A stretch of 44,325 nt of DNA from Armatimonadota bacterium (GCA_046292385.1 JBKBRF010000052.1:1-44325); one strand, 5' to 3'; shown: positions 4,070-44,325, numbered from the stretch's first letter. Numbers and translations: made by a program. Notes: generated from the letters alone by a model not told the origin.

Positions 4070-7000
4070 CTATTCGGCCGCCGGGAGCGTGAAGGAGACG
4101 GCGGTCCCCTTTCCTACTTCGCTCTCGATCCAGATGCTGCCGCCGTGCGCTTCGATAATATTCTTGACGATGGCCAGTCCCAGCCCGGTCCCGCCGGTCT
4201 TGCGAGTGACCACTTTCTCCACCTGATAGAATCGGTCGAAGACGCGGTCGACTTCATCCGCCGGGATTCCGCATCCCGTGTCTCGCACGGTGCAGACCAC
4301 CTTGCCGTTGTCTCGGAAGAGCCGCACGTCGATCCGGCCGTCGTTCTCGGTGAACTTGAGGGCGTTCCCCACCAGGTTGGTGAACACCTGCGCGATCCGC
4401 TGCTCGTCGGCCATGGCGACCACCGGCAGCGAGCTGTCCGGCACGTCGGTGCCGACGCGGACGCCCTTCTCCGAAGCCTGGGGCCGGAGATCCTCCAGCA
4501 CCCGCTCCGCGACCTGGCGCACGGAGACCGGCGACTGCTTCATCTCGATCTTGCCGCTCTCGATGCGGGAGATATCCAGGAAGTCCGAGATGATGGCGGA
4601 GAGCCGCTTCGCCTGGCGGTGGATCGATTCCAGGGCGGTCTTCTGGGTGTCCGCCACCTGTCCCAGCCGGCCCGTCAGCATGTAGCTGGAGAAGCCGAGG
4701 ATGGAGGTGAGCGGCGTCCGCAGCTCGTGCGAGACGAGGGAGATGAAGTCGCTCTTCATCTCGTCGATCACGCGCTCGCGGGTGATGTCGTGCAGGTGGA
4801 GCAGCCGGCCCAGCGGCTTGCCGCTGGACGCGATCAGGTCGACCTGCCGCAGCTGCAGCACCTGCCGCTCCGGCTCCGTCAGCTCGTACTCGTGGACGCC
4901 CGGCCCCTTCTCGCAGGTGGCGAGGCAGTCCTGGAGCGCCCGGGAGACTTCGCCGGGCAGCGCGGCGACCGCGAACGGCGCCTCCGGCAGCGGCAGCTTC
5001 AGCGGGTTGAGGTACTTGCGCGCGGCGGCGTTCAGGAAGGCGACCTGGCCGTTCGGCTCGAGCATCAGGAGGCCGTCCGGGCTCGATTCCACGATCGCCT
5101 GGATGCGCAGCTTTTCCTCGGCGAGCGTGTCGTGGCTCTCCTGCAGCTCCGCGCGGCCGATCTGGATCGCCGCGGCCATGTCGTTGAACGCCACGGCGAG
5201 GCGCGCCAGCTCGTCGTCGCCGGAGGCGCGGATGCGCAGGCTGTAGTCGCCCGCCGCCAGCGCCTGGGTCCCCTTCACGAGCTGGTTGATCGGCCGGACC
5301 AGCGACTTCGCGGTCAGCATCGCCAGGAAGAGCGCCAGTACCAGGAAGAGCGGGATCAGCCACGCGGAGTTGAGCAGCATCTTCCCCGCCGCGCGCGTCG
5401 CCACGGCGTTCGACTGCTTCTGAATATTGTCGCCGGCTCTGTTCGCGGTGGTGTTCGCGGCGGCATTTACGCTGTCGATGGTGTCTCCCATCATCGTGCG
5501 GATGCGCTCTTCCATCTCGACGCTGGCCTTGCCCTGCTGCGTGCCCACCTCCTGCGCCAGCTTGGCCCCCAGCGCCTGGAGAAGCTCCTTCTGATGCCGC
5601 TGGAACTCGTTCTTGACCCCTCCCACCTCAGCTTCTTCCACCAGGCGCAGGCGGTCGAGAGCCTGCTTCAGGATGTCGGCCTGGGCCTCCTCGGCGCGGG
5701 TGGTGCGCTGCTTGATAAAGCTCGTGTCGATCGTCTTCTCGACGTTTCCGAGGGAGGTGAGCCACGCGCCGGTCACCGCGGCGTTCAGCGCATCCGCGGG
5801 CTGGTAGACCTCTGCCTTCTCCTGGGCAACGACGACCCACGCGTCGTTTTCCTTCCAGTACCAGGCGCGCGCGAAGTGCTCGGTGGGATCCGCGCCGAGA
5901 GTGAAGCGGTAAGGGGACATCCGATATCGATCCGGCTCATTGCTGCGCTCCACGTCCGCTTCGTTGTGAGCCGGCAGCTCCGCGAGCAGCGACCTACCCA
6001 ATGCGGGAGGCTGGGTGGGGAACGAGCTGATCAGCTCTCCGGTGCTCGCCCTCACCACGACGATCATCATTCCCTTCGGGAGCGTGTCCCGCGTGGCTAT
6101 CTTCGCCAGGCCGTCTACCGGGTAATCCACCAGCACGAACGCCGTGTCCGGCTTGCCCTTCGGCATTTTCATCGAGTCCGAGGCGTCCGCAGACGGCTCT
6201 CCGATCGCGACCTGATGCACCACCCGCCGTATCCAGTGCTTACTCGTCTCGTCGTACCGGATCGGCTCCACCACGTACGGATCCGGAACGGCCAGGAACT
6301 GCTGCCGGGTTGAGGACTTCTCCCAATCTTCCTCGGCGGCGTGGGGGTTTCCGGGTTCATGGCGAAGGATCTCGGTTCCGGACGAATTCACCAGAATCGC
6401 GCGGACGATGCGCGGCTGAAAGCCCGCCAGGTGGTTGTTGAGCACGCGGGCGGCGAACGTCGTATCGGTATCCGGGTTGATGATCGCGTTGTGCCGGATC
6501 GGGAGCTGCAGTCGCAGCACGATCTCGTTCCGCAGCAGTACGTCCTGGTCCGGCACGGCAGACCAGCGTCGACTTGCGGAGACGTCCCACAGCGTCAGGA
6601 GCGAGCGCCGGATCTCGTCCAGCACTCCTTTGGACGACGAATTGATCTCAGCGCCCATTTTCTCGGCAAAGGTAGTCCGAAGGTCGGTGAGCGCCTGTTT
6701 CGTACCCTCCCGGACCCTCTCGTGGGAGTTCCGCACGGTCTCCCGACTCACCTGACCTACCTTCGACGCCGCGTTCTTGACCGCGTCCTGCCCGCGCTCC
6801 GACATCTGGTTAGCACTGCTCGCGAGCGCTCCCTTGCCCACCTCGACGGCCTGATCCGAGGTGTTCTTGAGGTGAGTCTTGCCCTGCTCTACGACATCCT
6901 TCTCGATATCGGTGAGCTTGGTGGTGGCGAGCTTCTCGAAGTCGGCGGCGGTGGTGCGAACGGCTTCTCGGCCGATGTCGGCGACGTCACCGCCGCTCTC

Positions 7001-33461: not shown

Positions 33462-34265
33462 ATGCTGACTCGCCCCGCCGCGCTCGCCGCCGCCCTGCTC
33501 GCCCTCACTGCCGCGCCCGCAGCCGCGCAGAAGAACATTCCCGAGACGATCGAGACCGACCGCCCCGACATCACGGAGGCGAGCAGCGTGGTCGGGAAAG
33601 GCGTTTTCCAGACCGAGAGCGGCTTCTACCAGGAGTATTTCAACCGCCGCCGGATCGACGAGCGCAACCTGTTCCGCCCCACGCTGCTCCGGTGGGGCTT
33701 CGATCCGCGCTGGGAAGCGCGCCTGGAGACCGACGCCTTCTCCCGCAGCCGGCTCTCCACCCCCCGCGGCGTGCGCCGGACCACCGGCTACTCCCCCATC
33801 GAGCTCGGCTTCAAGCACGCGCTTCAGTCGAGCCGGGAGGGCTCCCTCCGCCCCGAGCTGGCGGTACTGGCACACGTCGGTCTCCCCATCGGCTCCTCGG
33901 ACTTCTCCCAGGACCACGTTACCGGCACGGTGAAGGCGCTGATGGGCTGGGACCTGGGCGAGCGCTGGTCGCTCGGCTCCAACGCCGGGCTCTTCCTGGA
34001 AGAAGACGACTCCGGCAGCACCTTCGTCTCCACGTTGCTAACCGGCTCCCTCGGATACTCGATCACCGACCGGCTGAGCACCTTCGTGGAGCTGGCGCAC
34101 CAGCTCCACGAGCGCGCCGGCGGGGGCGACCTGCTGATCCTCGACGGCGGCTTCACCTACCTGCTGAGCGACGATACCCAGCTCGACCTCGCCGTCGGCA
34201 CCGGCCTCTCCGGCCGCACTGCCGCGGACTTCTTCTGGACCGTCGGTTTCAGCCGCCGATGGTAG
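33462..34265 (+). CDS. Putative outer-membrane beta-barrel channel (Phenol_MetA_deg-like)
   Basis: Signal peptide ending AAA-Q, TDRPD..EAS..V..G..Q.E.G motif, alternating beta-strand pattern, C-terminal aromatic (VGFSRRW); GGAG before ATG 33462. Confidence 0.8.
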   Translation: MLTRPAALAAALLALTAAPAAAQKNIPETIETDRPDITEASSVVGKGVFQTESGFYQEYFNRRRIDERNLFRPTLLRWGFDPRWEARLETDAFSRSRLSTPRGVRRTTGYSPIELGFKHALQSSREGSLRPELAVLAHVGLPIGSSDFSQDHVTGTVKALMGWDLGERWSLGSNAGLFLEEDDSGSTFVSTLLTGSLGYSITDRLSTFVELAHQLHERAGGGDLLILDGGFTYLLSDDTQLDLAVGTGLSGRTAADFFWTVGFSRRW

Positions 34266-34414
34266 CCGGCGGGTGTGGAGAGCGACGAGAGTAGCGGAAT
34301 TGGCCGGCTCTACCTAAATCAGCGCATCCCGCCGGGAGATTGACTCGTGGCTGCAGCGCCACTGACGCTAAGGGTAGGAAGGGAGAATGCCAGCCTTTCG
34401 GACCGGCAGGTCTG

Positions 34415-34465
34415 AGCCCGCGCAGGCGGGCTTTGTTCTCTGTAGCCTCGACCTTAGTCCGAGGC
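34415..34465 (+). repeat. REP-like double hairpin (GTAG type)
   Basis: AGCCCGC-GCAG-GCGGGCT hairpin, TTGTTCTCT linker, then GTAG-CCTCG...CGAGG; between convergent genes. Confidence 0.6.
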
Positions 34466-34495
34466 GCGAGTCCGGCAGTACTTACGTCGCACCCG

Positions 34496-35740
34496 CTAGG
34501 GCGCGCCGGTCTCCGCCTGGCAGCTCGGGGTTGATGGGGCCGGTGCTGCCTGGTTCCGTGGCAGTCTCACGATGAACTGGCTGCCCTTCCCCAGCCCCTC
34601 GCTGTATGCCCGGACCGATCCGCCGTGCATCTCCACCAGGGTCTTGACCAGGCTCAGCCCCAATCCAATCCCCTTTCGGGCGGTGGTAGGATCGGGTTCT
34701 ACCTGCTCGAAAAGACCAAAGATCTGCCGCAGCCGGTTTGGCTCGATCCCGATCCCGGTGTCTTGTACGGACAACTCTACGCAGTCGTCCGCAGGCGTCA
34801 CCGAAAGCTCGATCCGACCGCCGGCCGGGCAATACTTTGCGGCGTTGTCCAGCAGGTTGAGTAGGACCTGCTCGATCCGCATGCAATCAGCTTCCACCGG
34901 GAGTGGTTCTTTCGGCAGCCGGAGGACGAACTCGTGCTGCTCGTGCGCGACCCCGAGCCGAAACGTCTCTGCGGCACTTGCTGCGATCCCCTTGAGATCG
35001 CATCGCTCCACGTTCAGCGCCATCTGACCGCGGATCAGGCGCGAGATATCCAGCAGGTCCTCCAACATGCGGGAGATCTTACGCGTCTGGCGGGAGGCGC
35101 TCTCCAGAAGTCGCACCGACCGCTCGTCGGTGACGGAGCTGTGCTCCAGCACGTACAGGGCGTTGCTGATAGCCGAGAATGGGGTGCGGAGCTCGTGAGC
35201 GACGGTAGCGAGTAGCTGGTCCTTGCTCTCGGTCAGCCGCTGCGCCTCGCTGACGGCAGCTTCCGCCTTCGCGGCGCGTTCCGACTCTTGCTCTCGCTTG
35301 CTAAGAGCAAACCGCTCGCCGGCGATCAGCATTGCCGACTCCAGAGCACCGTAGATCAACTCCCGTGCGTCCGGCTGAACTTCAGCATGCTGCTCGAGAA
35401 CCTGGATGATCGTCTGGCGCAATAACTGAAACTCATGGAACACTTGCGCGAGACTGTAGTGCGTCTCTGTCGCCCGTCGCCCTCCGTGGTCCAGCGATTG
35501 ATCGACCGTGCGCTTCAGGCGAGCGTGCAATTCGGAGTCGGACTCCCACTCGGGATGCAGCGTGGTGACGATCGAGGCGATCAGTTGGGGGAAGGTGTTG
35601 CGAAGGATGATCGACTCCTCGCCCTGCGCTGCGGAGACCTCAGCTCGGGTCCTCGCTTCCCAGGTCGTAAGGATCTCCTCCGCGCAGTCCTGGAGGAGCT
35701 CTGCCAGGACCGCCCGTTCCTGGCGGTGTTGTGGTTTCAT
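34496..35740 (-). CDS. Soluble histidine kinase with N-terminal RsbRD_N-like helical domain
   Basis: EEILTTWE...HGGRR...YSLAQVFHEFQLLRQTI; AHELRTP; NLLDNAAKY, DTGIGI, FGLFEQ, GIGLGL. Confidence 0.9.
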   Translation of the reverse strand: MKPQHRQERAVLAELLQDCAEEILTTWEARTRAEVSAAQGEESIILRNTFPQLIASIVTTLHPEWESDSELHARLKRTVDQSLDHGGRRATETHYSLAQVFHEFQLLRQTIIQVLEQHAEVQPDARELIYGALESAMLIAGERFALSKREQESERAAKAEAAVSEAQRLTESKDQLLATVAHELRTPFSAISNALYVLEHSSVTDERSVRLLESASRQTRKISRMLEDLLDISRLIRGQMALNVERCDLKGIAASAAETFRLGVAHEQHEFVLRLPKEPLPVEADCMRIEQVLLNLLDNAAKYCPAGGRIELSVTPADDCVELSVQDTGIGIEPNRLRQIFGLFEQVEPDPTTARKGIGLGLSLVKTLVEMHGGSVRAYSEGLGKGSQFIVRLPRNQAAPAPSTPSCQAETGAP

Positions 35741-36377
35741 TTTCGAGGGTCCACATCCATTGTTGCTGTTCTCCCGGGCTGAGAATGCGCACCGTTGGTC
35801 TTGTCGGCAAGTGACTCATACCCACCTCCGGCGGTAAAGTCCACGCCAATCGCTCGTGCTGTCGCCCGCTAGCTCTCCGAAGCAACTCGCTTCACGGTCG
35901 GAAGGGTGCTCTCGGAGCCTACCGAGCCGCCGGTAGCCTGGGCGGTGAGGGGCGTGGTTCTCAAGACCGGCTCCCGCCGCACCGCCGTCTCACGTAAATG
36001 CGGGAGAATTGGAGAAAAGGGTGTAATCTCCCCTGACTTGGGTCAAGATCTGAGGTGGTGATCGATACCGGCCGGACACCGGTTTTCGTCAAGGGGCTTT
36101 CGGATTGCGAGCTTCCGAGAGGCTCGGAGCCGCCCTGCATCCTTCCGCCGGCTGGCTCCGACGGCGGCGGGATCCCACCACATGCGGGCTGACCTTTCCG
36201 GACCCGGCACCCTGGGACCACTGAATCGACCGGTCAGCCGGCGGGCTCGCGCCCGCTGCCAAACGCATTCATCGCCAGTGCGGTCCGCGCGGGCCCGACC
36301 CTCGCGGATGGCCGTATTCGGCTCAGCGGTCACCGCCCACGCCTGAACGATTTCGACCCTGCCCTGCGGACCCACCG

Positions 36378-36812
36378 ATGAGTCAGGCTCCACGCAACAC
36401 CTCCGGCGCCTCGTTTCGAATGCTCCTCCTGGAGCGGCTGGCAGCGTGTGCGCCGCACGAGAGTGTTGCCGCGGCCGCGGTGGCGAGGCTGGACACCCTG
36501 GGGCGGAGACTGACGCCGCTGGTGGGTGGCGAGGGCTATCGCGCGCTGCTGGCGCGCGCGATAGCCCTGGCGGCGCGAGAGCACCCGTGCCTGGCGCTGG
36601 TGGGCGTGGAGAGCTCCGGCTCTCTGAGCGGGCTGGAGGAAACACTGGCGGGGCGCGATGCTTCCGAAAGGGATGCGGCCTACGTGGAGCTCCTCGCGCA
36701 GCTACTCGAGCTACTAGTCACGTTTGTCGGGGAGCGCATCACGCGAAAGCTGGCGGGGGACATCTGGCCTGAGCCGGCAGAAGGCGTGGGAGCCGAGGAT
36801 CACGAAGGATGA
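36378..36812 (+). CDS. Small all-helical hypothetical protein, coupled to the KaiC-like gene
   Basis: 144 aa; ATGA overlap with the next gene; internal repeat LTPLVG..GYRALL / LVTFVG..ITRKL. Confidence 0.8.
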   Translation: MSQAPRNTSGASFRMLLLERLAACAPHESVAAAAVARLDTLGRRLTPLVGGEGYRALLARAIALAAREHPCLALVGVESSGSLSGLEETLAGRDASERDAAYVELLAQLLELLVTFVGERITRKLAGDIWPEPAEGVGAEDHEG

Positions 36813-38500
36813 CAGAGAGCGGCGGAGTGTCGATCAGCCAGTTGCCCACTGGCGTGCCGGGCCTGGACATGGTTATCAGTGGGGGGCTCCCGGAGTTTTC
36901 CTTCAATGTTATTGCGGGCTCCCCCGGCTCGGGCAAGACGACCCTGGCCCAGCAGATCGTGTTTGCCAACGCGACCCCGCAGCGGCCGGCGCTTTATTTC
37001 ACGGTGCTGGGCGAGCCTCCACTGAAGATGCTGCGCTACCAGCAGCAATTCGACTTCTTCGATACCAATAAGGTGGACGACTCCGTCCGCTTCATCAACC
37101 TCAGCGGAGAGGTGATGCAGGACGGGCTCGGCGCCGTGCTGGACCGTATTGTGACGGAGGTAAGGGCCGCCAATCCCGGCTTCGTGGTCGTCGATTCTTT
37201 TCGGACGGTAATCCGTAAGGTGGGCAGCTCCCCCACCGGGGAGATGGAGCTGCAGTCGTTCGTGCAGCGACTGGCGCTCCATCTTACCAGCTGGCAGGCG
37301 ACTACCTTTCTGGTCGGCGAGTACGAGATGGGCGAGCTCCGGGATAACCCGATCTTCACGGTGGCGGACGGGCTCTTCTGGCTCTCGCAGATCGTGGACG
37401 GAAACTCGGTAGTGCGTAAGCTCCAGGTGGTGAAGCTGCGCGGCCAGAGCTCGATTCCCGGGCTCCACACCTTTCGGATCTCCGAAGAGGGGGTCCGGGT
37501 CTTTCCGCGCACCTTCGGCTTGATGCCGAAGACTCCGGAGGAGCGGCCGGAGCGGCGGCTCTCCACCGGTATACGGGGGCTGGACGAGCTGCTGGGCGGC
37601 GGCATTCCCTCCGGAGACTCCGCCCTCATCGCGGGACCGGCGGGCTCCGGCAAGACCGCCGTCTGTACCCAGTTCATTGCCGAGGGGGCGCGGAACGGCG
37701 AGCTCGGCGTAATGGCGGTCTTCGAAGAGCACCCCACGGAATACATCTCCCGGGCCGAGACGATGGGACTCGAGTTCAAGGAGATGATCCGCGATGGGCG
37801 CGTCAAGGTGCTCTACCTGCGGCCGCTGGATCTCTCGGTAGACGAGACGCTCCAGGAGCTGTTGACGGCGGTAGAGCAGCTCGGCGCCACCCGGGTCGTC
37901 ATCGATTCGCTGGTCGGATTTGAGATGGCGCTCGCGCCGGCGTTTCGAGCCGACTTCCGCGAGTCGCTTTACCGCCTCCTCAGTGCCCTTACCGGCCGAG
38001 GCATTACGGTCCTGAGCTCCGTCGAGGTGACCGACTCGTTCCAGGAGCTGCGGCTGAGCCCCCACCATATCTCGTTTCTCACCGATGTCATCATCTTGCA
38101 GCGGTATGTAGAGCTGGAGGGGCAGCTTCGAAAGGTGATGATGGTCGTCAAGACGCGGCGCGGTGAGCACAGCCCGGATCTACGCATCTACGACGTCACG
38201 CGCGACGGCATTGTGGTGGGAGGGAGATTTTTTGGGTATCAACGAATACTCACCGGTACCGCAGAGCGCGCCGCACCCCGAACGCGGGAAGGCTTGACCC
38301 GAGTAGAAGAGCTGGTTCTGGAGGCGGTCCGCAGCGTCGGGGAAGCTCCGCTTGCTCAACTGGCCGCCCGGACCGGGTTGAGACGTGGCCCACTGCGTCA
38401 GGCGATAGGGCGCCTGTTCCAGTTGGGGTATGTGGAGGGTGTGGGGGGAAGTCGCGACGTGGTGCGCGCGCCGGCGCCTCCGGAGAGCCGCCCGGGATAA
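36809..38500 (+). CDS. Double-domain KaiC/RAD55-like ATPase with C-terminal winged HTH
   Basis: Two RecA-like domains: TGVPGLD/TGIRGLD, Walker A GSPGSGKT and GPAGSGKT, Walker B VVVDS/VVIDS, VVKLRG/VVKTRRG; tail LTRVEELVL...LAARTGL....RQAIGRLFQLGYVE. Confidence 0.92.
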   Translation: MTESGGVSISQLPTGVPGLDMVISGGLPEFSFNVIAGSPGSGKTTLAQQIVFANATPQRPALYFTVLGEPPLKMLRYQQQFDFFDTNKVDDSVRFINLSGEVMQDGLGAVLDRIVTEVRAANPGFVVVDSFRTVIRKVGSSPTGEMELQSFVQRLALHLTSWQATTFLVGEYEMGELRDNPIFTVADGLFWLSQIVDGNSVVRKLQVVKLRGQSSIPGLHTFRISEEGVRVFPRTFGLMPKTPEERPERRLSTGIRGLDELLGGGIPSGDSALIAGPAGSGKTAVCTQFIAEGARNGELGVMAVFEEHPTEYISRAETMGLEFKEMIRDGRVKVLYLRPLDLSVDETLQELLTAVEQLGATRVVIDSLVGFEMALAPAFRADFRESLYRLLSALTGRGITVLSSVEVTDSFQELRLSPHHISFLTDVIILQRYVELEGQLRKVMMVVKTRRGEHSPDLRIYDVTRDGIVVGGRFFGYQRILTGTAERAAPRTREGLTRVEELVLEAVRSVGEAPLAQLAARTGLRRGPLRQAIGRLFQLGYVEGVGGSRDVVRAPAPPESRPG

Positions 38501-38578
38501 GGAACGCGGGCCACAACAGGGGACGGATCGGCCCTTCTCGCTAATGTGGAGGGCACCGACGGGGAAGGATGCAGTTCC

Positions 38579-40060
38579 ATGAGTAATCCCGAGGGCGATC
38601 TTTGTTCCGTCCTGTACTGCGCGGTTGCCCACTCGCCCTCGGCTGTGGCCGTGAGCGAGGGGCCTGAACAGGTCCTGCGTCACCTGAACCCGGCCTTTCG
38701 CCGGCTCTACCCGGGAGCGGCAGAGCACCGCCTGGGGCAGCCCACCACGGTGAGCGACCTCCACCGCGCCATTCAGGAAAGCCTGGTAGAGCGAGGGCGA
38801 GCCGACTACACTCGGCACCCAGCCACGACGTTGAGGCCCAATCGTCCGCCGCCTGAGGACGCGCCAATCCGATTCTCCCTGATAAACACCGTCACTTACC
38901 CCGGAGCCGATGCAGGGACCGAGGCGGAGGAGACGGCCGATTCTGAAGTGATCGCCGACCTTACCGAGGCGAACCAGCAGCTCGTGATCACGGGACTGCG
39001 TGCGCAGGAGCTGGCCGAGCGCGCGCGGCGCGCCGAAGAACGGCTGGTACGGGCGCTGGTGGCCTCGCGCATGGTGGCATGGGAGTGGGAATGCGCTCCA
39101 GACCGAGTGTATCTATCGGAAACGGCCTCGGAGGTTTTCGGGCTGCCGCCGGAGCGGACTCTCTCGAGCTACGCGGAGCTGTTTGACCTCGTGCATCCGG
39201 AGGACCGGGAGCGATATCGAGACGCCATCGCCACCGCTCCGAGCCGTGGGGGCGGTTACGTCTGCCAGTTCCGAGTGGTGCGACCCGCCGACGGGGTGGA
39301 GATCTGGATGGAAGACCACGGCCGGGTGAGCCGTGATGTGAGTGGGAGGGTAGTCGCCGTCAACGGCGTGATCCTTGATATTACGAGCGTGAAGGGTGCA
39401 GAGAAGGAGTATGCGCAGCTCCTTGCGAGCGAGCAGCGCAAGTCGCGCCAGCTGATGGTGGCTACGCGAGAAGCACACCACCGGATCAAGAACAACCTGC
39501 AGTCCGTGACGGACCTCCTGTCGCTGGAATTAGACCAAGCGGATGCCGGCACGGCATCGGTCCTGCACAACTGCATGGATCGGATCCAGGCGATCGCGGC
39601 AATTCACGATCTCCTCTCGCACGAAAGCGAGATGGAGAGCATCGAGGTGGCCGAGGCGCTGCAAAGACTCGTGCCGATGGTGCTCACCGGCCAGAATCTA
39701 GCGGAGGAGTCCGTTACGGTGACGCTGCACTGTGACCCCGCGCGACTGCCCTCGCGCCACGCGACCCGCTTCGCGCTGATTCTCACAGAGCTGATCAGCA
39801 ATGCCGTCAAGCACGGCCTCGCACACAGGCAAAGAGGCCACCTGGACATCTCTTTCGCGACCGAGGAGGCGGGGTTTCGGCTCACCGTCCAGGATGACGG
39901 CCTGGGCCTCCCTCCCGGGTTCCTGCTCGAGCGGGATAGCAACGTGGGACTGCAGGTGGTGGAAGCGCTCGTCAGCGGTATGAACGGGCGGCTGCGCTTA
40001 ACGAATGAGCGTGGCGCCCGCGCCGAAGTCTTCCTCCCCCACGAAGGGATAGTCGGCTAG
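38579..40060 (+). CDS. Soluble PAS-domain histidine kinase, HisKA_2/HWE class
   Basis: H-box EAHHRIKNNLQ, ELISNAVKHG, DDGLG; PAS_3 (WEWE...VHPEDR...W...G..LDIT); degenerate N-terminal PAS. Start could be 38546. Confidence 0.9.
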   Translation: MSNPEGDLCSVLYCAVAHSPSAVAVSEGPEQVLRHLNPAFRRLYPGAAEHRLGQPTTVSDLHRAIQESLVERGRADYTRHPATTLRPNRPPPEDAPIRFSLINTVTYPGADAGTEAEETADSEVIADLTEANQQLVITGLRAQELAERARRAEERLVRALVASRMVAWEWECAPDRVYLSETASEVFGLPPERTLSSYAELFDLVHPEDRERYRDAIATAPSRGGGYVCQFRVVRPADGVEIWMEDHGRVSRDVSGRVVAVNGVILDITSVKGAEKEYAQLLASEQRKSRQLMVATREAHHRIKNNLQSVTDLLSLELDQADAGTASVLHNCMDRIQAIAAIHDLLSHESEMESIEVAEALQRLVPMVLTGQNLAEESVTVTLHCDPARLPSRHATRFALILTELISNAVKHGLAHRQRGHLDISFATEEAGFRLTVQDDGLGLPPGFLLERDSNVGLQVVEALVSGMNGRLRLTNERGARAEVFLPHEGIVG

Positions 40061-40164
40061 ACCCCGCCGCCCCTACCCTTTGCTGACGTGTGAGCGCCGT
40101 TCTTTGGGAACGTCTCCCGGACTCCAGACATGCGAGCGCCGAACCACCACTCCCGTGTGACTCG

Positions 40165-40815
40165 ATGAAACTGCTGGCGGTGAGCGATCTACACGGGGAC
40201 CTGCAATCGGTCTGGACCGCGCTGGAGGCGGCGGAGCCGGACGTGCTGCTCTGCTGCGGAGACTGGGGCGATCCCGGGGAGGTCGATCCGGAGGCGCTGC
40301 AGGCCTTTACGGAGCGCCTGCCGGTCTACACCGTCTTCGGAAACCACGACGACCTGCAGGTCCTGGAAGAGTGGGAGAATCGCGACGGCTCGCCGGTGCT
40401 GCTTCCCCAGGGCGGCACGCAGCAGGTCGGAGCGCTGGTGCTGGCCGGAATCAGCGGCATCTGGGCCAAGAGCCACCGGAAGCCCTATTACGTCACCGAC
40501 GAGGACGTCGACGAAGCCGCGCTGCGAGTGCAGGCTTCCGGGGCGAGAGTCGATATCCTGCTCTCCCACGGCTGCCCCAGCGGCGTAGCGGACCTCGCCT
40601 GGGGCAACCGCCACGCGGGCCAGCGCTGCTTCCTCCGTGCTTTCCAGCTCCTGCGCCCGCGGCTCTACCTGACCGGCCACCTCCACCGCGCGCAAGAGCA
40701 CCGCACCCATTCCGGCGAGATCGTGCGGAATGTCGGCGCCACCCCCACCGGCGACGCGGTCCTGATCACCGTCAACGGGCGTGAGCTGGAGGTGACGGCG
40801 CTGCGACTCGGATAG
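40165..40815 (+). CDS. Calcineurin-like metallophosphoesterase
   Basis: SDLHG, GDWG, GNHD, SH, GHLH motifs. Confidence 0.92.
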   Translation: MKLLAVSDLHGDLQSVWTALEAAEPDVLLCCGDWGDPGEVDPEALQAFTERLPVYTVFGNHDDLQVLEEWENRDGSPVLLPQGGTQQVGALVLAGISGIWAKSHRKPYYVTDEDVDEAALRVQASGARVDILLSHGCPSGVADLAWGNRHAGQRCFLRAFQLLRPRLYLTGHLHRAQEHRTHSGEIVRNVGATPTGDAVLITVNGRELEVTALRLG

Positions 40816-40872
40816 AAAACTTCTTCGGAGCGCCGGCGCAACCAACGCAGCGCGGCGCCGTTTAGAGATGGC

Positions 40873-41316
40873 ATGGACGAGCGGGTTTTCCTGGGTCTGG
40901 GCAGCAACCTCGGCGAGCGCGGTGAGAACCTGCGCCAGGCGCTGCGGCAGCTCGGCGAGCTGCCGGGGACGGAGGTGGTGCGGGTCTCCGCCTTCGTGGA
41001 GAGCGCGCCGTGGGGCGTGACGGACCAGCCCGGCTTCCTGAACGCGGTGGCGGAGATTCGCACGGCGCTGGAACCCGGGGCCCTGCTTCGCGCCGTCAAA
41101 GAGATAGAGCGGAAAGTCGGGCGCGCGCCGACCTATCGCTGGGGTCCGCGGCTGATCGACATCGACCTGCTGCTCTACGGCGCCCGCCGGGTGAGCACGC
41201 CGGAGCTGACCGTCCCCCATCCCCACCTGCTGGAGCGGGAGTTCGTCACCGGCCCGCTGGAGCAGATCGCGCCGGAAGTGCTGGAGGAGCTGCGTCGTGC
41301 CGCTGTTTCGCTATGA
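40873..41316 (+). CDS. folK: 6-hydroxymethyl-7,8-dihydropterin pyrophosphokinase
   Basis: LGLGSNLG, QPGFLNAV, RWGPRLIDIDLL, LTVPHP...REFV. Confidence 0.96.
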   Translation: MDERVFLGLGSNLGERGENLRQALRQLGELPGTEVVRVSAFVESAPWGVTDQPGFLNAVAEIRTALEPGALLRAVKEIERKVGRAPTYRWGPRLIDIDLLLYGARRVSTPELTVPHPHLLEREFVTGPLEQIAPEVLEELRRAAVSL

Positions 41317-42544
41317 GGCGCTGGACGGTACCGGCAACCCGGTGACCGCTTACATGCAGGAGCTGGACGAGCAAGCCGTCTCCCGCCGCCTCGCCGCCCA
41401 GGGATACCGGCCGGTCTCGATCGAGGTGGCGCAGCGGGGCCTGCGGGCGTCGGCCGCAGGCCTGGCCGCGGGCGCTCCCGCCGCGGCCACGCAGTCGGCC
41501 CCGGCGCCGGTCTCCCGCCTTAGCGCGCCGGAGCGGTCGATCGCGCGGATGCTCCACCAGCTCCACATCTCCTTCCGCGCCGGCATGCCGGCCTACCAGG
41601 CGGTCTCCACCGTCGCCGGCCAGGTGCACGACCGCTCCCTGCGCCAGGTACTGGTGGAGGTGGCGCAGGGCGTGCAGCGCGGCGAGCGGCTCTCGGACCA
41701 GATGGAGCGGTATCCCCGCATCTTCTCCCGCGGCGACGTCGGCACGGTGCGAGCGGCGGAGCTGGGCGGCTTCCTGCCGGAAGCGTTCCAGGCGCTGGCG
41801 GACCAGCACGAGCAGGACGACAACACCCGCCGCCGGCTGGCGATCTGGGTCTGGTTCGCTCACTCGAACGTCGTCACGCTCGCGGTGCTGATCGCCTTCT
41901 CGGCCTTCTTCGGCGCGGCGCTCCGGAACTTCGACGTGGGCGTGGGCATGCAGGCGATTGGCAGCACCTTCCTGCGGGTCTCACTGCCGATCCTGGTGCT
42001 CTACTTCGGCGGCCTCGCCTACTTCTCGCACGTGCGCCGCAGCGGCGGAGAGCTGACGCGGAAGTGGCACCGGTCGCTGCTGAAGCTGCCAGTGATCGGG
42101 CGGATCAACTTTCTCCGGGCCAGCGCGGTCTTCACCCGGATGCTGGAGCGGCTCTACCACGCCGGCGTGAGCGGGACTACCGCCTGGGACACCGCCGCCG
42201 CCGCGGTCCCGAACCTCTATCTCTCGGACCGCTTCCTCTCCGGCCGCGGTGCCGTGGAGACCACCGGCCGCCTGAGCGCCGGAATGGAGCAGACCGGCGT
42301 GCTGGAACCGGCGGACGTGGGGATGGTCGCGACCGGCGAGACCACCGGTGACATCCCCCAGGCGCTCCACTACCTGGCCAACCGGTACGAAGAAGACACC
42401 CGCGTGGCGCTCGGCGCCGGCGTGCTGCGAGGAGCGATCTCGTTCACCCTCTGGGCTTTCCTGCTCGGCGCCATCGGGTTCGCCATCCTGATGCAGGGCT
42501 ACTACGGACAGATCTTCAAAGCTTTCGAAGAATGGCAGCAGTAG
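41297..42544 (+). CDS. Type IV pilus / type II secretion platform protein (PilC/GspF family), divergent copy
   Basis: MPLFRYEALD..G, two T2SSF repeats (GERLSDQM..YP..F...AAELGG; MVATGETTGDI), LKLPVIG. Confidence 0.88.
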   Translation: MPLFRYEALDGTGNPVTAYMQELDEQAVSRRLAAQGYRPVSIEVAQRGLRASAAGLAAGAPAAATQSAPAPVSRLSAPERSIARMLHQLHISFRAGMPAYQAVSTVAGQVHDRSLRQVLVEVAQGVQRGERLSDQMERYPRIFSRGDVGTVRAAELGGFLPEAFQALADQHEQDDNTRRRLAIWVWFAHSNVVTLAVLIAFSAFFGAALRNFDVGVGMQAIGSTFLRVSLPILVLYFGGLAYFSHVRRSGGELTRKWHRSLLKLPVIGRINFLRASAVFTRMLERLYHAGVSGTTAWDTAAAAVPNLYLSDRFLSGRGAVETTGRLSAGMEQTGVLEPADVGMVATGETTGDIPQALHYLANRYEEDTRVALGAGVLRGAISFTLWAFLLGAIGFAILMQGYYGQIFKAFEEWQQ

Positions 42545-42687: not shown

Positions 42688-43887
42688 ATGCCGGTCTATA
42701 CCTATACAGCCAAGGACAGCCGCGGAAATGTTCAGCAGGGGGAGGTGGAAGCGGTCTCCGACTCCCAGGCGGTGGCGCAGCTCCGGGAGCAGGGGCTCTG
42801 GACCACCAACCTGAAGCGCCGCGGCGGCGGGGGGCGCGCGGAGGGCGAGCGGGGGGAAAAGCAGGAGACGAGCCTCTTTATGAAGCTCTTCCCACCGGTC
42901 TCCTCCAAAGACCTCTCTCTTTTCTACCGCCAGCTCTACACGATGCTGAACTCCGGCATGCCGCTCTACGGCTCTCTGGAGACGCTCGGCGGAACGCACC
43001 AGTCGCCGAACCAGCATCTCCGGCGGGTCGCCGCGACCATGGCGCAGATGGTGCTGGCGGGCCAGACGCTCTCCGCCGGGATGCGGCGCTTTCCGTGGCT
43101 CTTCGACAAGATGCAGCTCCGGATGGTCGAAGCCGGCGAGATGGGTGGACTGCTCGTCACGATCCTGGAGCGGCTCGCGGAGTACCTGGAGCGCGACTAC
43201 CAGCTCCGGCTGGAGATCAAGAAGAAAACCCTCTACCCCAAGCTGCTCCTGCTGGCCTTAATCCTGATCCCGCCGATCCCGATCCTGGTGCTGGGGGGGG
43301 TGGTCCCCTACCTGCTGGCGGTGTGGGGTACGGTTTCCACGGCCATCCTCTACGGCATCCCGACCTACGTTATGGTAAAGCTGCTGCTCACCACGCAGGC
43401 GGGTCGGGAGCTGTACGATCAGATCAAGCTCGGGCTGCCGGTGATCGGCCCGCTCGTCCGCAAGCTGGCGGTGGCGCGGTTCTCCCGCACCCTGGCGGCG
43501 CTCTACGGCGCGGGCGTTCCGATCGTGAGCGCGGTGACCATCTCCTCGGAGGCTACCGGCAACAGCGTGCTGGAGCGCGGCTGCCGCGTGGCGGCGCCCG
43601 CCATGGAGAAGGGCGGCTCGATCGGCCTGGCGCTCTCCGCGACCCGCTTCTTCCCGCCCATGTTTACCGGCATGGTGAGCACGGGTGAGACGACCGGCAG
43701 TCTGGATGATACGCTCAACAAGGCAGCGGACTTCTACGAGCAGGAAGCGCTCCATACCAGCGTCCAACTGGTCGTCATCCTCGGCGTGGTGCTGCTCCTC
43801 ATCATGGCGCTGATCATCGCGATCCAGGTCATCGGCGCCTGGGGCGGATATGCCGCGGGGGTTACCGGAGCAGGTGGCGGAGGCTAG
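42688..43887 (+). CDS. pilC: Type IV pilus / type II secretion platform protein (PilC/GspF family)
   Basis: MPVYTYTAKD..G, FYRQLYTMLNSG, AGEMGG, LYP, LPVIG, RFSRTLA, TGETTGSLD..L.KAADFYE. Confidence 0.93.
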   Translation: MPVYTYTAKDSRGNVQQGEVEAVSDSQAVAQLREQGLWTTNLKRRGGGGRAEGERGEKQETSLFMKLFPPVSSKDLSLFYRQLYTMLNSGMPLYGSLETLGGTHQSPNQHLRRVAATMAQMVLAGQTLSAGMRRFPWLFDKMQLRMVEAGEMGGLLVTILERLAEYLERDYQLRLEIKKKTLYPKLLLLALILIPPIPILVLGGVVPYLLAVWGTVSTAILYGIPTYVMVKLLLTTQAGRELYDQIKLGLPVIGPLVRKLAVARFSRTLAALYGAGVPIVSAVTISSEATGNSVLERGCRVAAPAMEKGGSIGLALSATRFFPPMFTGMVSTGETTGSLDDTLNKAADFYEQEALHTSVQLVVILGVVLLLIMALIIAIQVIGAWGGYAAGVTGAGGGG

Positions 43888-43890
43888 GCC

Positions 43891-44325
43891 GTGAGCGAGG
43901 GAAAGACCCACTACGAAGTCCTGGGTCTTTCCCCGGATGCTGATGCAGACCAGATCCGGAAGCGATTCCGGGAGCTGGCGCGCAAGTACCATCCGGACGT
44001 GAACCCCGGTCCCGGCGCCCACGAGATGTTCCTGCGCATCAACCAGGCCTACGACGTCCTGGGAGACGCCACCCGGCGCGCCTCGTACGACCTGACCCTG
44101 CGCGACCGCGCGCGCAAGCAGCAGCCGCCCCCGGGCGGACGACCCTCGCCCCCACCCGGAGCCGCCCGCGCCGGTGGCAGCCGCACCGGAGCGACCGCCG
44201 GTCGGCCGGGCGCGGGCGGCTCCGCGGCTTCAGGGCGGGGCACCGCTGGGGGGGGGAGGGGAAGTCGAGAGACCAAACTAATGGTCGGCTCCCCACCCCC
44301 AGACTACCTACACGGACCACTTCAT
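43891..44325 (+). CDS. J-domain (DnaJ-like) protein, incomplete at window end
   Basis: Not in the ORF track (no stop in window). GTG 43891 translates to VSEGKTHYEVLGL...RELARKYHPDVN...FLRINQAYDVLGD..RRASYD with the HPD motif, then a Pro/Gly-rich linker. Confidence 0.9.
   Translation, partial: MSEGKTHYEVLGLSPDADADQIRKRFRELARKYHPDVNPGPGAHEMFLRINQAYDVLGDATRRASYDLTLRDRARKQQPPPGGRPSPPPGAARAGGSRTGATAGRPGAGGSAASGRGTAGGGRGSRETKLMVGSPPPDYLHGPLH

Follow-up and report, generated by a model that had tools for sequence, protein, structure and literature searches.

The 44,325-nucleotide (nt) stretch of DNA from an Armatimonadota bacterium analysed here (GCA_046292385.1, JBKBRF010000052.1:1-44325; this whole stretch is called the window below) includes three co-directional genes, encoding a small helical protein of 144 amino acids (aa), a double-domain KaiC-like ATPase and a soluble sensor histidine kinase (Table 1). 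The open reading frame (ORF) of the small protein overlaps that of the KaiC-like protein by 4 nt in an ATGA stop/start junction that reads ...GAAGGATGACAGAG, and the kinase gene follows after a gap of 45 nt. A promoter/terminator scan identified no terminator-like sites between the three genes and gave no signal exceeding the shuffled expectation, and no Rfam family was matched over positions 34000-41000. Among the sequencing runs listed, none with RNA contains the stretch. Neither KaiA (PF07688) nor KaiB (PF07689) was matched in the window or in the entire 7.04-Mb genome, which is 98.45% complete, by searches that were each positive in a Synechococcus control. A preliminary description of the window, made from the sequence alone, had reported a helical protein translationally coupled to a double-domain KaiC-like ATPase, a soluble PAS HisKA_2 kinase after it, and no kaiA or kaiB in the window; the gene calls, Pfam domains and predicted helices bear all of this out, and the absence of kaiA and kaiB extends across the genome.

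Table 1. Features of the KaiC-centred locus, with a neighbouring gene in the last line (positions counted from the first nucleotide of the window).
Feature	Position	Strand	Basis
Small helical partner protein, 144 aa, unnamed family	36378..36812	+	ORF listing; ATGA stop/start overlap with KaiC
Double-domain KaiC-like ATPase, 563 aa	36809..38500	+	PF06745 twice; CI ~36845-37510, CII ~37562-38221
Codons S422-F423, equivalents of the Synechococcus KaiC S431-T432 pair	38072..38077	+	alignment to PDB KaiC chains
C-terminal winged-helix tail of the KaiC-like protein (predicted)	38273..38497	+	weak Pfam matches, AlphaFold (AF2) model and Foldseek
Soluble sensor histidine kinase, 504 aa, GTG start, output protein of the module	38546..40060	+	Pfam domains
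Kinase N-terminal PAS-like domain (motif SEGPEQVLRHLNPAF) and coiled-coil motif ANQQLVITGLRAQELAE, candidate KaiC-docking module	38627..39040	+	motifs, alignment
Divergent histidine kinase (RsbRD_N/globin-like N-domain, HisKA, HATPase_c), neighbour of the module	34496..35740	-	Pfam

The KaiC-like protein matches PF06745 ("KaiC") in two stretches with 230.1 bits (cut-off 26.6), and each half was also found separately in the genome search. It does not reach the circadian KaiC equivalogs NF006799 (244.5 bits versus the 408 required) and TIGR02655 (163.4 versus 546.25). Its closest relatives in the PDB are KaiC structures (8zn5, E = 7e-63; 1u9i/2gbl of Synechococcus, 1e-52; 8dba, with 568 residues, 7e-43). 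Both halves contain motifs that we take to be Walker A (GSPGSGKT at residue 37 and GPAGSGKT at 276), Walker B (VVVDS at 126 and VVIDS at 363) and the Lys/Arg or arginine finger (KLRG at 209 and KTRR at 448), all of which are invariant in 39 aligned orthologues. The catalytic glutamates of the CII half are in FEE at residue 305, and the CI half has a single one, in LGEP at residue 67, which is also invariant in the 39 orthologues. Mean column conservation is higher in CI than in CII (0.734 versus 0.661) and peaks in an invariant stretch of CI, LGEP..K..RYQQQF.FF; as the better conserved half, CI would be the likeliest contact surface for a constant partner.

The Ser-Thr pair of the Synechococcus phosphosite is not present in the window protein, where S422-F423 align with S431-T432 (hisfltd in the query, hISTITD in the structure). 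The position of F423 is occupied by Phe in at least 90% of the 39 orthologues, and that of S422 varies between Ser, Ala and Gly: proteobacterial members have Ala (GTAFLTD), and a single orthologue has Gly. Because S422 is unconserved, phosphorylation at this position cannot be a clade-wide mechanism; judging from the alignment, it is possible in the Armatimonadota host.

Three double-domain KaiC paralogues are encoded in the genome, on contigs C10, C36 and C52, the last of which carries the window copy. The other two (C10:57537-59189 and C36:64189-65745) are approximately 30% identical to the window KaiC, and neither has a small-family gene upstream; the next gene in each case is a long same-strand ORF that by eye is kinase-like or receiver-like.

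The small ORF is a real gene and not a chance frame, since its relatives are widespread and AlphaFold gives a confident model of its product. The single sequence recovered relatives in seven of 41 related genomes, and an eight-row alignment of the family recovered matches in 40 of 401 Armatimonadota genomes and, among 1.84 billion, 5,261 cluster representatives at E ≤ 1e-3 (3,502 at E ≤ 1e-10). In an alignment of 115 members, one column is invariant and a further 12 are nearly so. The 144-aa protein belongs to no family of NCBIfam, or of Pfam at E ≤ 0.01. When the 115 members were compared with Pfam, the best E value was 0.0096 and no one family was matched by more than two members; the KaiA and KaiB families were absent from their matches at E ≤ 0.1. 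The orthologues in Pseudomonas, Stutzerimonas, Luteimonas and Roseateles are labelled "hypothetical protein" by NCBI, and the neighbours in the ESM Atlas are likewise only "hypothetical protein" clusters. PADLOC returned no match for the small protein or the kinase, and weak P-loop-type matches only for KaiC.

The AlphaFold model of the small protein (predicted local distance difference test (pLDDT) 84.8, predicted template modelling score 0.76) is mostly helical, with helices at residues 9-23, 30-66 (37 residues), 95-117 and 119-129 and a small hairpin. Foldseek found no match to it in the PDB at E ≤ 1e-3, and comparison of the family profile with the PDB gave two chance-level rows only (E = 0.62 and 1.3). 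In an exhaustive VIA-align search the best Z score was 6.4, within the noise expected of helical models, and no Kai chain was among the 50 rows; nor was any ring-collar domain among the fold matches listed by Foldseek and VIA-align. When the complex of the small protein with residues 1-495 of KaiC was predicted from alignments of both, the scores were 0.28 and 0.25 (mark 0.32), values that speak neither for nor against binding.

A comparison of the family alignment with longer proteins revealed no fused form of the small domain (a weak negative). One in-frame fusion of the small protein to KaiC is present in a metagenome bin (G016), 35 nt past a run of six A residues; with residues 1-140 of this fusion as the query no further fusion was recovered, which is again a weak negative. 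The fourth row of the ESM Atlas neighbours is a cluster of 371-aa proteins (73 members, Acidobacteriota) with a PatA_N (PATAN) domain and a region whose model can be superposed on that of the small protein (template modelling score 0.68); on the strength of this superposition of models it is possibly a fusion of the small family to another signalling domain.

The small gene and kaiC are strictly linked. Outside the window's own genome, the small family was matched at 40 places in 400 Armatimonadota genomes, and the neighbourhoods of all 40 were examined. At 37 of them an orthologous KaiC gene (55-76% identity) lies directly downstream on the same strand; at two (G087 and G187) the downstream KaiC is broken by runs of N; and the remaining place (G165, E = 7e-4) is not recognised by a deeper profile and is probably spurious. 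The window's own genome has only one small-family member by six-frame profile search, the one beside the window KaiC, and no paralogue of the small protein was detected there by tblastn.

Linkage is equally strict when the search starts from KaiC. Among the best 80 of 440 relatives (50-76% identity), a small-family ORF lies directly upstream on the same strand in all 80. By their record labels these loci belong to at least nine phyla (Armatimonadota, Acidobacteriota, Planctomycetota, Gemmatimonadota, Verrucomicrobiota, Bdellovibrionota, Nitrospirota, Chloroflexota and Pseudomonadota), with many from Pseudomonadota, including named Pseudomonas species. The stop of the small gene and the start of KaiC overlap by 4 nt in 67 of the 80 loci and by 1, 8 or 25 nt in seven, and are separated by 4-76 nt in six, counts that depend on heuristically chosen KaiC starts. 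Two of the labels are probably wrong, the records being mislabelled or contaminated: the contig of an "Actinomycetes bacterium" (L088), which is one placed in the window's own family, and that of a "Gordonia" (L137) with a Pseudomonas-like operon. At another locus (L018, G007:C65) a distant KaiC paralogue (518 aa, 30% identity; 4712-6268, minus strand) lies directly upstream of the small gene, giving the gene order KaiC-small-KaiC-PAS/GAF/SpoIIE.

The third gene of the window module encodes a kinase with PAS_3 (residues 188-276, 67.6 bits), HisKA_2 (309-378, 65.8 bits, cut-off 22.3) and HATPase_c (407-499, 44.8 bits, cut-off 26.4) domains, all above their cut-offs, and no membrane-like segment was detected in it (maximum Kyte-Doolittle 19-residue mean, 1.44). 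Elsewhere the product of the third gene is variable. At 22 Armatimonadota loci that were scanned, the downstream gene encodes a SpoIIE/PP2C protein in ten, a HisKA kinase in six (three with a receiver domain), a HisKA_2 kinase in three and a GGDEF protein in three (one with EAL). At 40 loci scanned in other lineages, 36 of the products are of kinase type (ten with GGDEF in front and nine with a receiver), three are SpoIIE proteins and one matches no family. These 40 are taken from 66 candidate ORFs, the omitted ones being five duplicates, one non-adjacent ORF (L087), two clipped at the end of their locus (L105 and L148) and 18 others, nearly all from Pseudomonas. The co-occurrence check proposed in the preliminary description is thus strongly positive for the small protein and KaiC and positive for a downstream signalling protein, and the three genes are very probably one module. 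The three-part composition once proposed stands in its first two genes; the HisKA_2 kinase is not a conserved part, and the third gene is better described as a variable output.

Two features of these outputs were also observed. GGDEF precedes the HisKA/HATPase core, an unusual domain order, at L099, L101, L108-L110, L112, L115, L120, L142 and L145, which are loci of Betaproteobacteria and Xanthomonadales. At L058 (G350:C11, 2788-5062) and L061 (G365:C214, 4126-7023), KaiC is followed by a GGDEF or GGDEF-EAL protein and then by an ORF with a SpoIIE-like end. Both output genes at both of these loci begin with the coiled-coil motif described below, and their succession suggests that one core may feed two effectors.

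Many of the outputs start with a PAS-like domain containing the motif SPL..A.TEGP.H.L..VNPAF and, additionally or alternatively, have a coiled-coil motif, (I/V/A)N(E/Q)xL(V/L)I(A/T)G.RQ.ELAE. With strict patterns, one or both motifs are found in 17 of 23 Armatimonadota outputs and 11 of 27 others. Each pattern matches once in the 7-Mb genome, among six-frame stretches of at least 150 aa, and in both cases the match is in the window kinase. A ten-row alignment of this N-terminal module, compared with the 401 genomes, gave 27 strong matches (E ≤ 1.5e-28), followed by a gap down to 3e-14, where the matches are generic PAS domains. Twenty of the 26 strong matches outside the window's own genome adjoin the small gene or KaiC, one adjoins a KaiC fragment, one is at the start of a contig and four are non-adjacent. 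By this distribution of matches the N-terminal module is a specific mark of the proteins that accompany this KaiC. At L154 (G393:C439, 1208-3148) a second copy of the protein with the N-terminal module has only a C-terminal KaiC fragment beside it (profile positions 388-490), and this may be a decayed duplicate of the module.

The window KaiC also has a C-terminal extension (residues 489-563), for which Pfam gives weak matches to the winged-helix families MarR_2, HTH_IclR and HTH_27 (E = 6e-4 to 2e-3), all below their cut-offs, the best being MarR_2 (E = 6e-4, 20.3 bits, cut-off 27). The AlphaFold model of these 75 residues, made from an 11-row alignment (pLDDT 84), has the topology H-E-H-H-E-E, and all 50 matches listed by Foldseek are winged helices (best E = 1.5e-3, probability 1.0, TMq 0.58-0.77), among them MarR-family regulators, a cullin WHB domain, AspA and IclR. 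The designation "KaiC-wHTH" in the preliminary description thus holds at the level of the predicted fold. The tail is present in only ten of the 39 aligned orthologues (some Armatimonadota, Gemmatimonadota and one Thermomicrobiales), and is therefore an add-on outside the core of the system.

The locus is probably a KaiC-centred, three-gene signalling module without KaiA or KaiB, with an obligate small partner and swappable outputs. The preliminary description had cast the small protein as a modulator of the hexamer and the kinase as the relay of the hexamer's state, and a mechanism of this kind may be outlined. The small protein, co-produced with KaiC by translational coupling, would be a dedicated regulator or adaptor of the ring, and would most likely act on the CI half. 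The nucleotide state of the ring, together in this organism with possible phosphorylation of Ser422, would be read by the PAS-like domain and coiled-coil linker of the next protein, and the linker would switch the attached effector, which is a HisKA_2 kinase here and a HisKA kinase, a PP2C phosphatase or a diguanylate cyclase in relatives. On some KaiC proteins, the winged-helix tail may add a second, lineage-restricted output or an anchoring function. Such a scheme presumes that the proteins bind one another, that the signal flows from the ring to the effector and that the small protein affects ATPase activity or phosphorylation, all of which we infer. A more far-reaching proposal is offered tentatively, as somewhat more likely to fail than to hold: the small protein may found a third class of KaiC regulators beside KaiA and KaiB, which binds the CI ring and sets its ATPase activity or conformation, while the ring drives kinases, PP2C phosphatases and cyclases through the PAS-like/coiled-coil module, as a hub found from Armatimonadota to Pseudomonas.

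Several observations weigh against an obligate module of this composition. One locus (G013) has no signalling gene after KaiC, and ribosomal protein genes are found there instead. The strict motif patterns miss six of the 23 Armatimonadota outputs and 16 of the 27 others, so that a docking module defined by them is not universal. The N-terminal module occurs without an adjacent KaiC at G126, G363, G358:C38 and G222, and in three of these four genomes the small gene was not found. The loci are related by descent and the two locus sets partly overlap, so the counts do not represent independent events. The small protein showed no likeness to a known KaiC partner in sequence or among the fold matches listed, which leaves linkage as the argument for its role; and the in-frame fusion to KaiC, with a run of six A residues just before it and no counterpart recovered elsewhere, may be an assembly error.

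The same linkage could have a structural cause. The small protein might serve the KaiC ring as a separately encoded structural domain or as an assembly factor, much like an N-terminal collar without which the hexamer would not form or would be unstable, and carry no signal: strict 1:1 linkage and translational coupling fit stoichiometric assembly, the one apparent fusion is N-terminal and in frame, and the proteins of the family are built of helices only, a long helical hairpin among them. This explanation is unlikely, as other KaiC clades, including the two paralogues in the window's own genome, manage without a small protein, the single fusion could be an artefact, and known ring collars are absent from the listed structural matches, a weak argument given the noise among helical models. 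Nor is it likely, and we rate it a little lower, that the module is a KaiB-less hourglass, in which slow autophosphorylation of Ser422 or ATP hydrolysis measures time, the small protein resets or gates the process and the kinase reports the time elapsed. The window KaiC keeps the Ser431 equivalent, the CII catalytic residues and the arginine finger; the article of De Luca et al. proposes an hourglass for KaiC-kinase pairs without KaiA and KaiB (PMC3164672), and the text of a preprint on Pseudomonas reports that KaiC phosphorylation varies with culture age (bioRxiv 10.1101/2022.01.26.477890). The nearly constant Phe at the T432-equivalent position, the Ala at the S431-equivalent position in proteobacterial members, by which this site can be no clade-wide mechanism, and the absence of KaiB from the genome all argue against it. 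For the same reason, a canonical phosphosite pair that is S-F here and unconserved in the clade, the timer in the "switch or timer" of the preliminary description is doubtful.

The signal might also flow in the reverse direction, with the PAS proteins as inputs that load KaiC or act on it, the PP2C forms dephosphorylating it, and DNA binding by the winged helix as the output. The winged-helix fold predicted for the tail, the action of PP2C on phosphoserine, for which KaiC has a candidate, and the lack of a response regulator gene beside the kinase in the window are consistent with this reversal. It is nevertheless improbable, because the tail is found in so few orthologues, because cyclase and kinase effectors are sensible as outputs but not as KaiC-modifying enzymes, and because the published Pseudomonas kinase is treated as a downstream partner in the text of its preprint. 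That the three genes are chance neighbours, or a mobile or anti-phage cassette unrelated to signalling, is hardly credible. The clade is patchy over many phyla, and G+C content is lower at 34-40 kb of the window (0.64-0.66) than in the flanking 4 kb (0.70-0.71); equally low values at 4-10 kb and 42-44 kb mean that the dip is no clear evidence for transfer. The linkage, found in every confirmed locus, has already largely refuted chance, and PADLOC returned no relevant match. A KaiC-centred signalling module with a fixed small partner and exchangeable outputs is the reading adopted here.

The divergent histidine kinase gene on the other side of the module has a catalytic core that resembles those of the downstream kinases at two related loci, and a copy of it is not a conserved feature among the related loci examined. 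Beyond the module, the window contains tandem ORFs of 415 and 399 aa (41297-42544 and 42688-43887), which by eye resemble PilC/GspF-type pilus platform proteins, and after them a J-domain-like ORF at 43891.

The function and control of KaiC relatives outside the cyanobacteria, in the absence of KaiA and KaiB, are an open question, for which this clade supplies a strictly linked candidate partner in the small protein, and this can be tested as the possible missing regulator of non-cyanobacterial KaiC proteins. The clade also supplies a recognisable candidate docking module on the output proteins. Orthologous operons in culturable and genetically tractable Pseudomonas species make the system accessible to experiment, and the exchange of kinase, phosphatase and cyclase would be informative on the rewiring of a single ATPase core to different second-messenger and phosphorylation pathways.

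The cyanobacterial KaiABC system consists of a double-domain KaiC ring, small dedicated partners and the kinase SasA, which docks on KaiC through a special N-terminal domain. At the level of genes, the window module is similar in having a double-domain KaiC, a small partner gene and a histidine kinase with a special N-terminal domain. Unlike KaiABC, in which KaiC has the S-T phosphosite and two catalytic Glu residues in CI, the window KaiC has S-F and one Glu in CI, and is not accompanied by KaiA or KaiB. The partner in the window is helical and has no sequence match to KaiA or KaiB, and the N-terminal domain of the kinase is PAS-like, in contrast to the thioredoxin-like domain of SasA.

Closer parallels are found in Pseudomonas. 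According to the text of the preprint of Terrettaz et al. (bioRxiv 10.1101/2022.01.26.477890), environmental Pseudomonas encode modules of a KaiB-less KaiC, a histidine kinase and, in some, a response regulator; KaiC and the kinase share an operon and bind each other, for which the PAS domain at the N-terminus of the kinase suffices; the experiments were done on KaiC groups I and III, and "group II" is associated only with a kinase. The likeness to the window module is a double-domain KaiC without KaiA or KaiB and a histidine kinase in the operon. The Pseudomonas orthologues of the window clade (52-55% identity) fit group II in having no phosphorylatable residues at the S431/T432 positions, with threonines nearby (GTAFLTD), nearest relatives in Xanthomonadales and a kinase as sole neighbour, and on this sequence evidence they are presumably that group. 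The difference is the small gene, which precedes KaiC in all 80 of the best loci here, all Pseudomonas ones included; the text of the preprint does not contain the terms "hypothetical", "unknown function" or "small protein", and its supplementary files may list the gene.

In Ramlibacter tataouinensis, KaiC (Rta_04330) and a kinase (Rta_04340) are co-transcribed without kaiA or kaiB, and the article of De Luca et al. (2011, PMC3164672) proposes the N-terminal domain of the kinase as a KaiC-docking module. As described there, the conserved "Nt_HK" group has SY, TY or SF sites and a KaiB/SasA-like N-domain, whereas the window module has a PAS-like plus coiled-coil N-terminal module and an obligate small partner. 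The legend of Fig. S6 of that article lists, within a heterogeneous "black" group, KaiC proteins that have SF or AF as the phosphosite and "HP" (hypothetical protein) genes as neighbours, and its passages on KaiC-kinase pairs do not analyse the small partner. Literature searches found no paper describing the small partner, or KaiC with PP2C or SpoIIE outputs. The preliminary description had called the system undescribed, and this needs to be narrowed: pairs of a KaiB-less KaiC and a histidine kinase are already known from these accounts of Pseudomonas and Ramlibacter, and it is for the small partner family, the shared docking module and the exchange of outputs that no printed account was found.

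The arrangement of the outputs has a parallel in RsbT-RsbU type control, by which, as set out in the article of Baral et al. (2025, PMC12143880), PPM phosphatases, diguanylate cyclases and kinases are regulated through coiled-coil linkers. Both systems combine one conserved upstream part, a short coiled coil and interchangeable effectors of the same three classes; the upstream part is the stressosome kinase RsbT in the one and a KaiC-like ATPase with a small partner in the other, and no sequence relation is claimed. Archaeal KaiC-family ATPases linked or fused to varied signalling domains have been proposed as signalling hubs (Makarova, Galperin and Koonin 2017, as cited in PMC5847659). The proteins of that proposal, in the form in which it is cited, are mostly single-domain or inactivated KaiC, whereas the clade of the window is bacterial and double-domain and has one fixed small partner.

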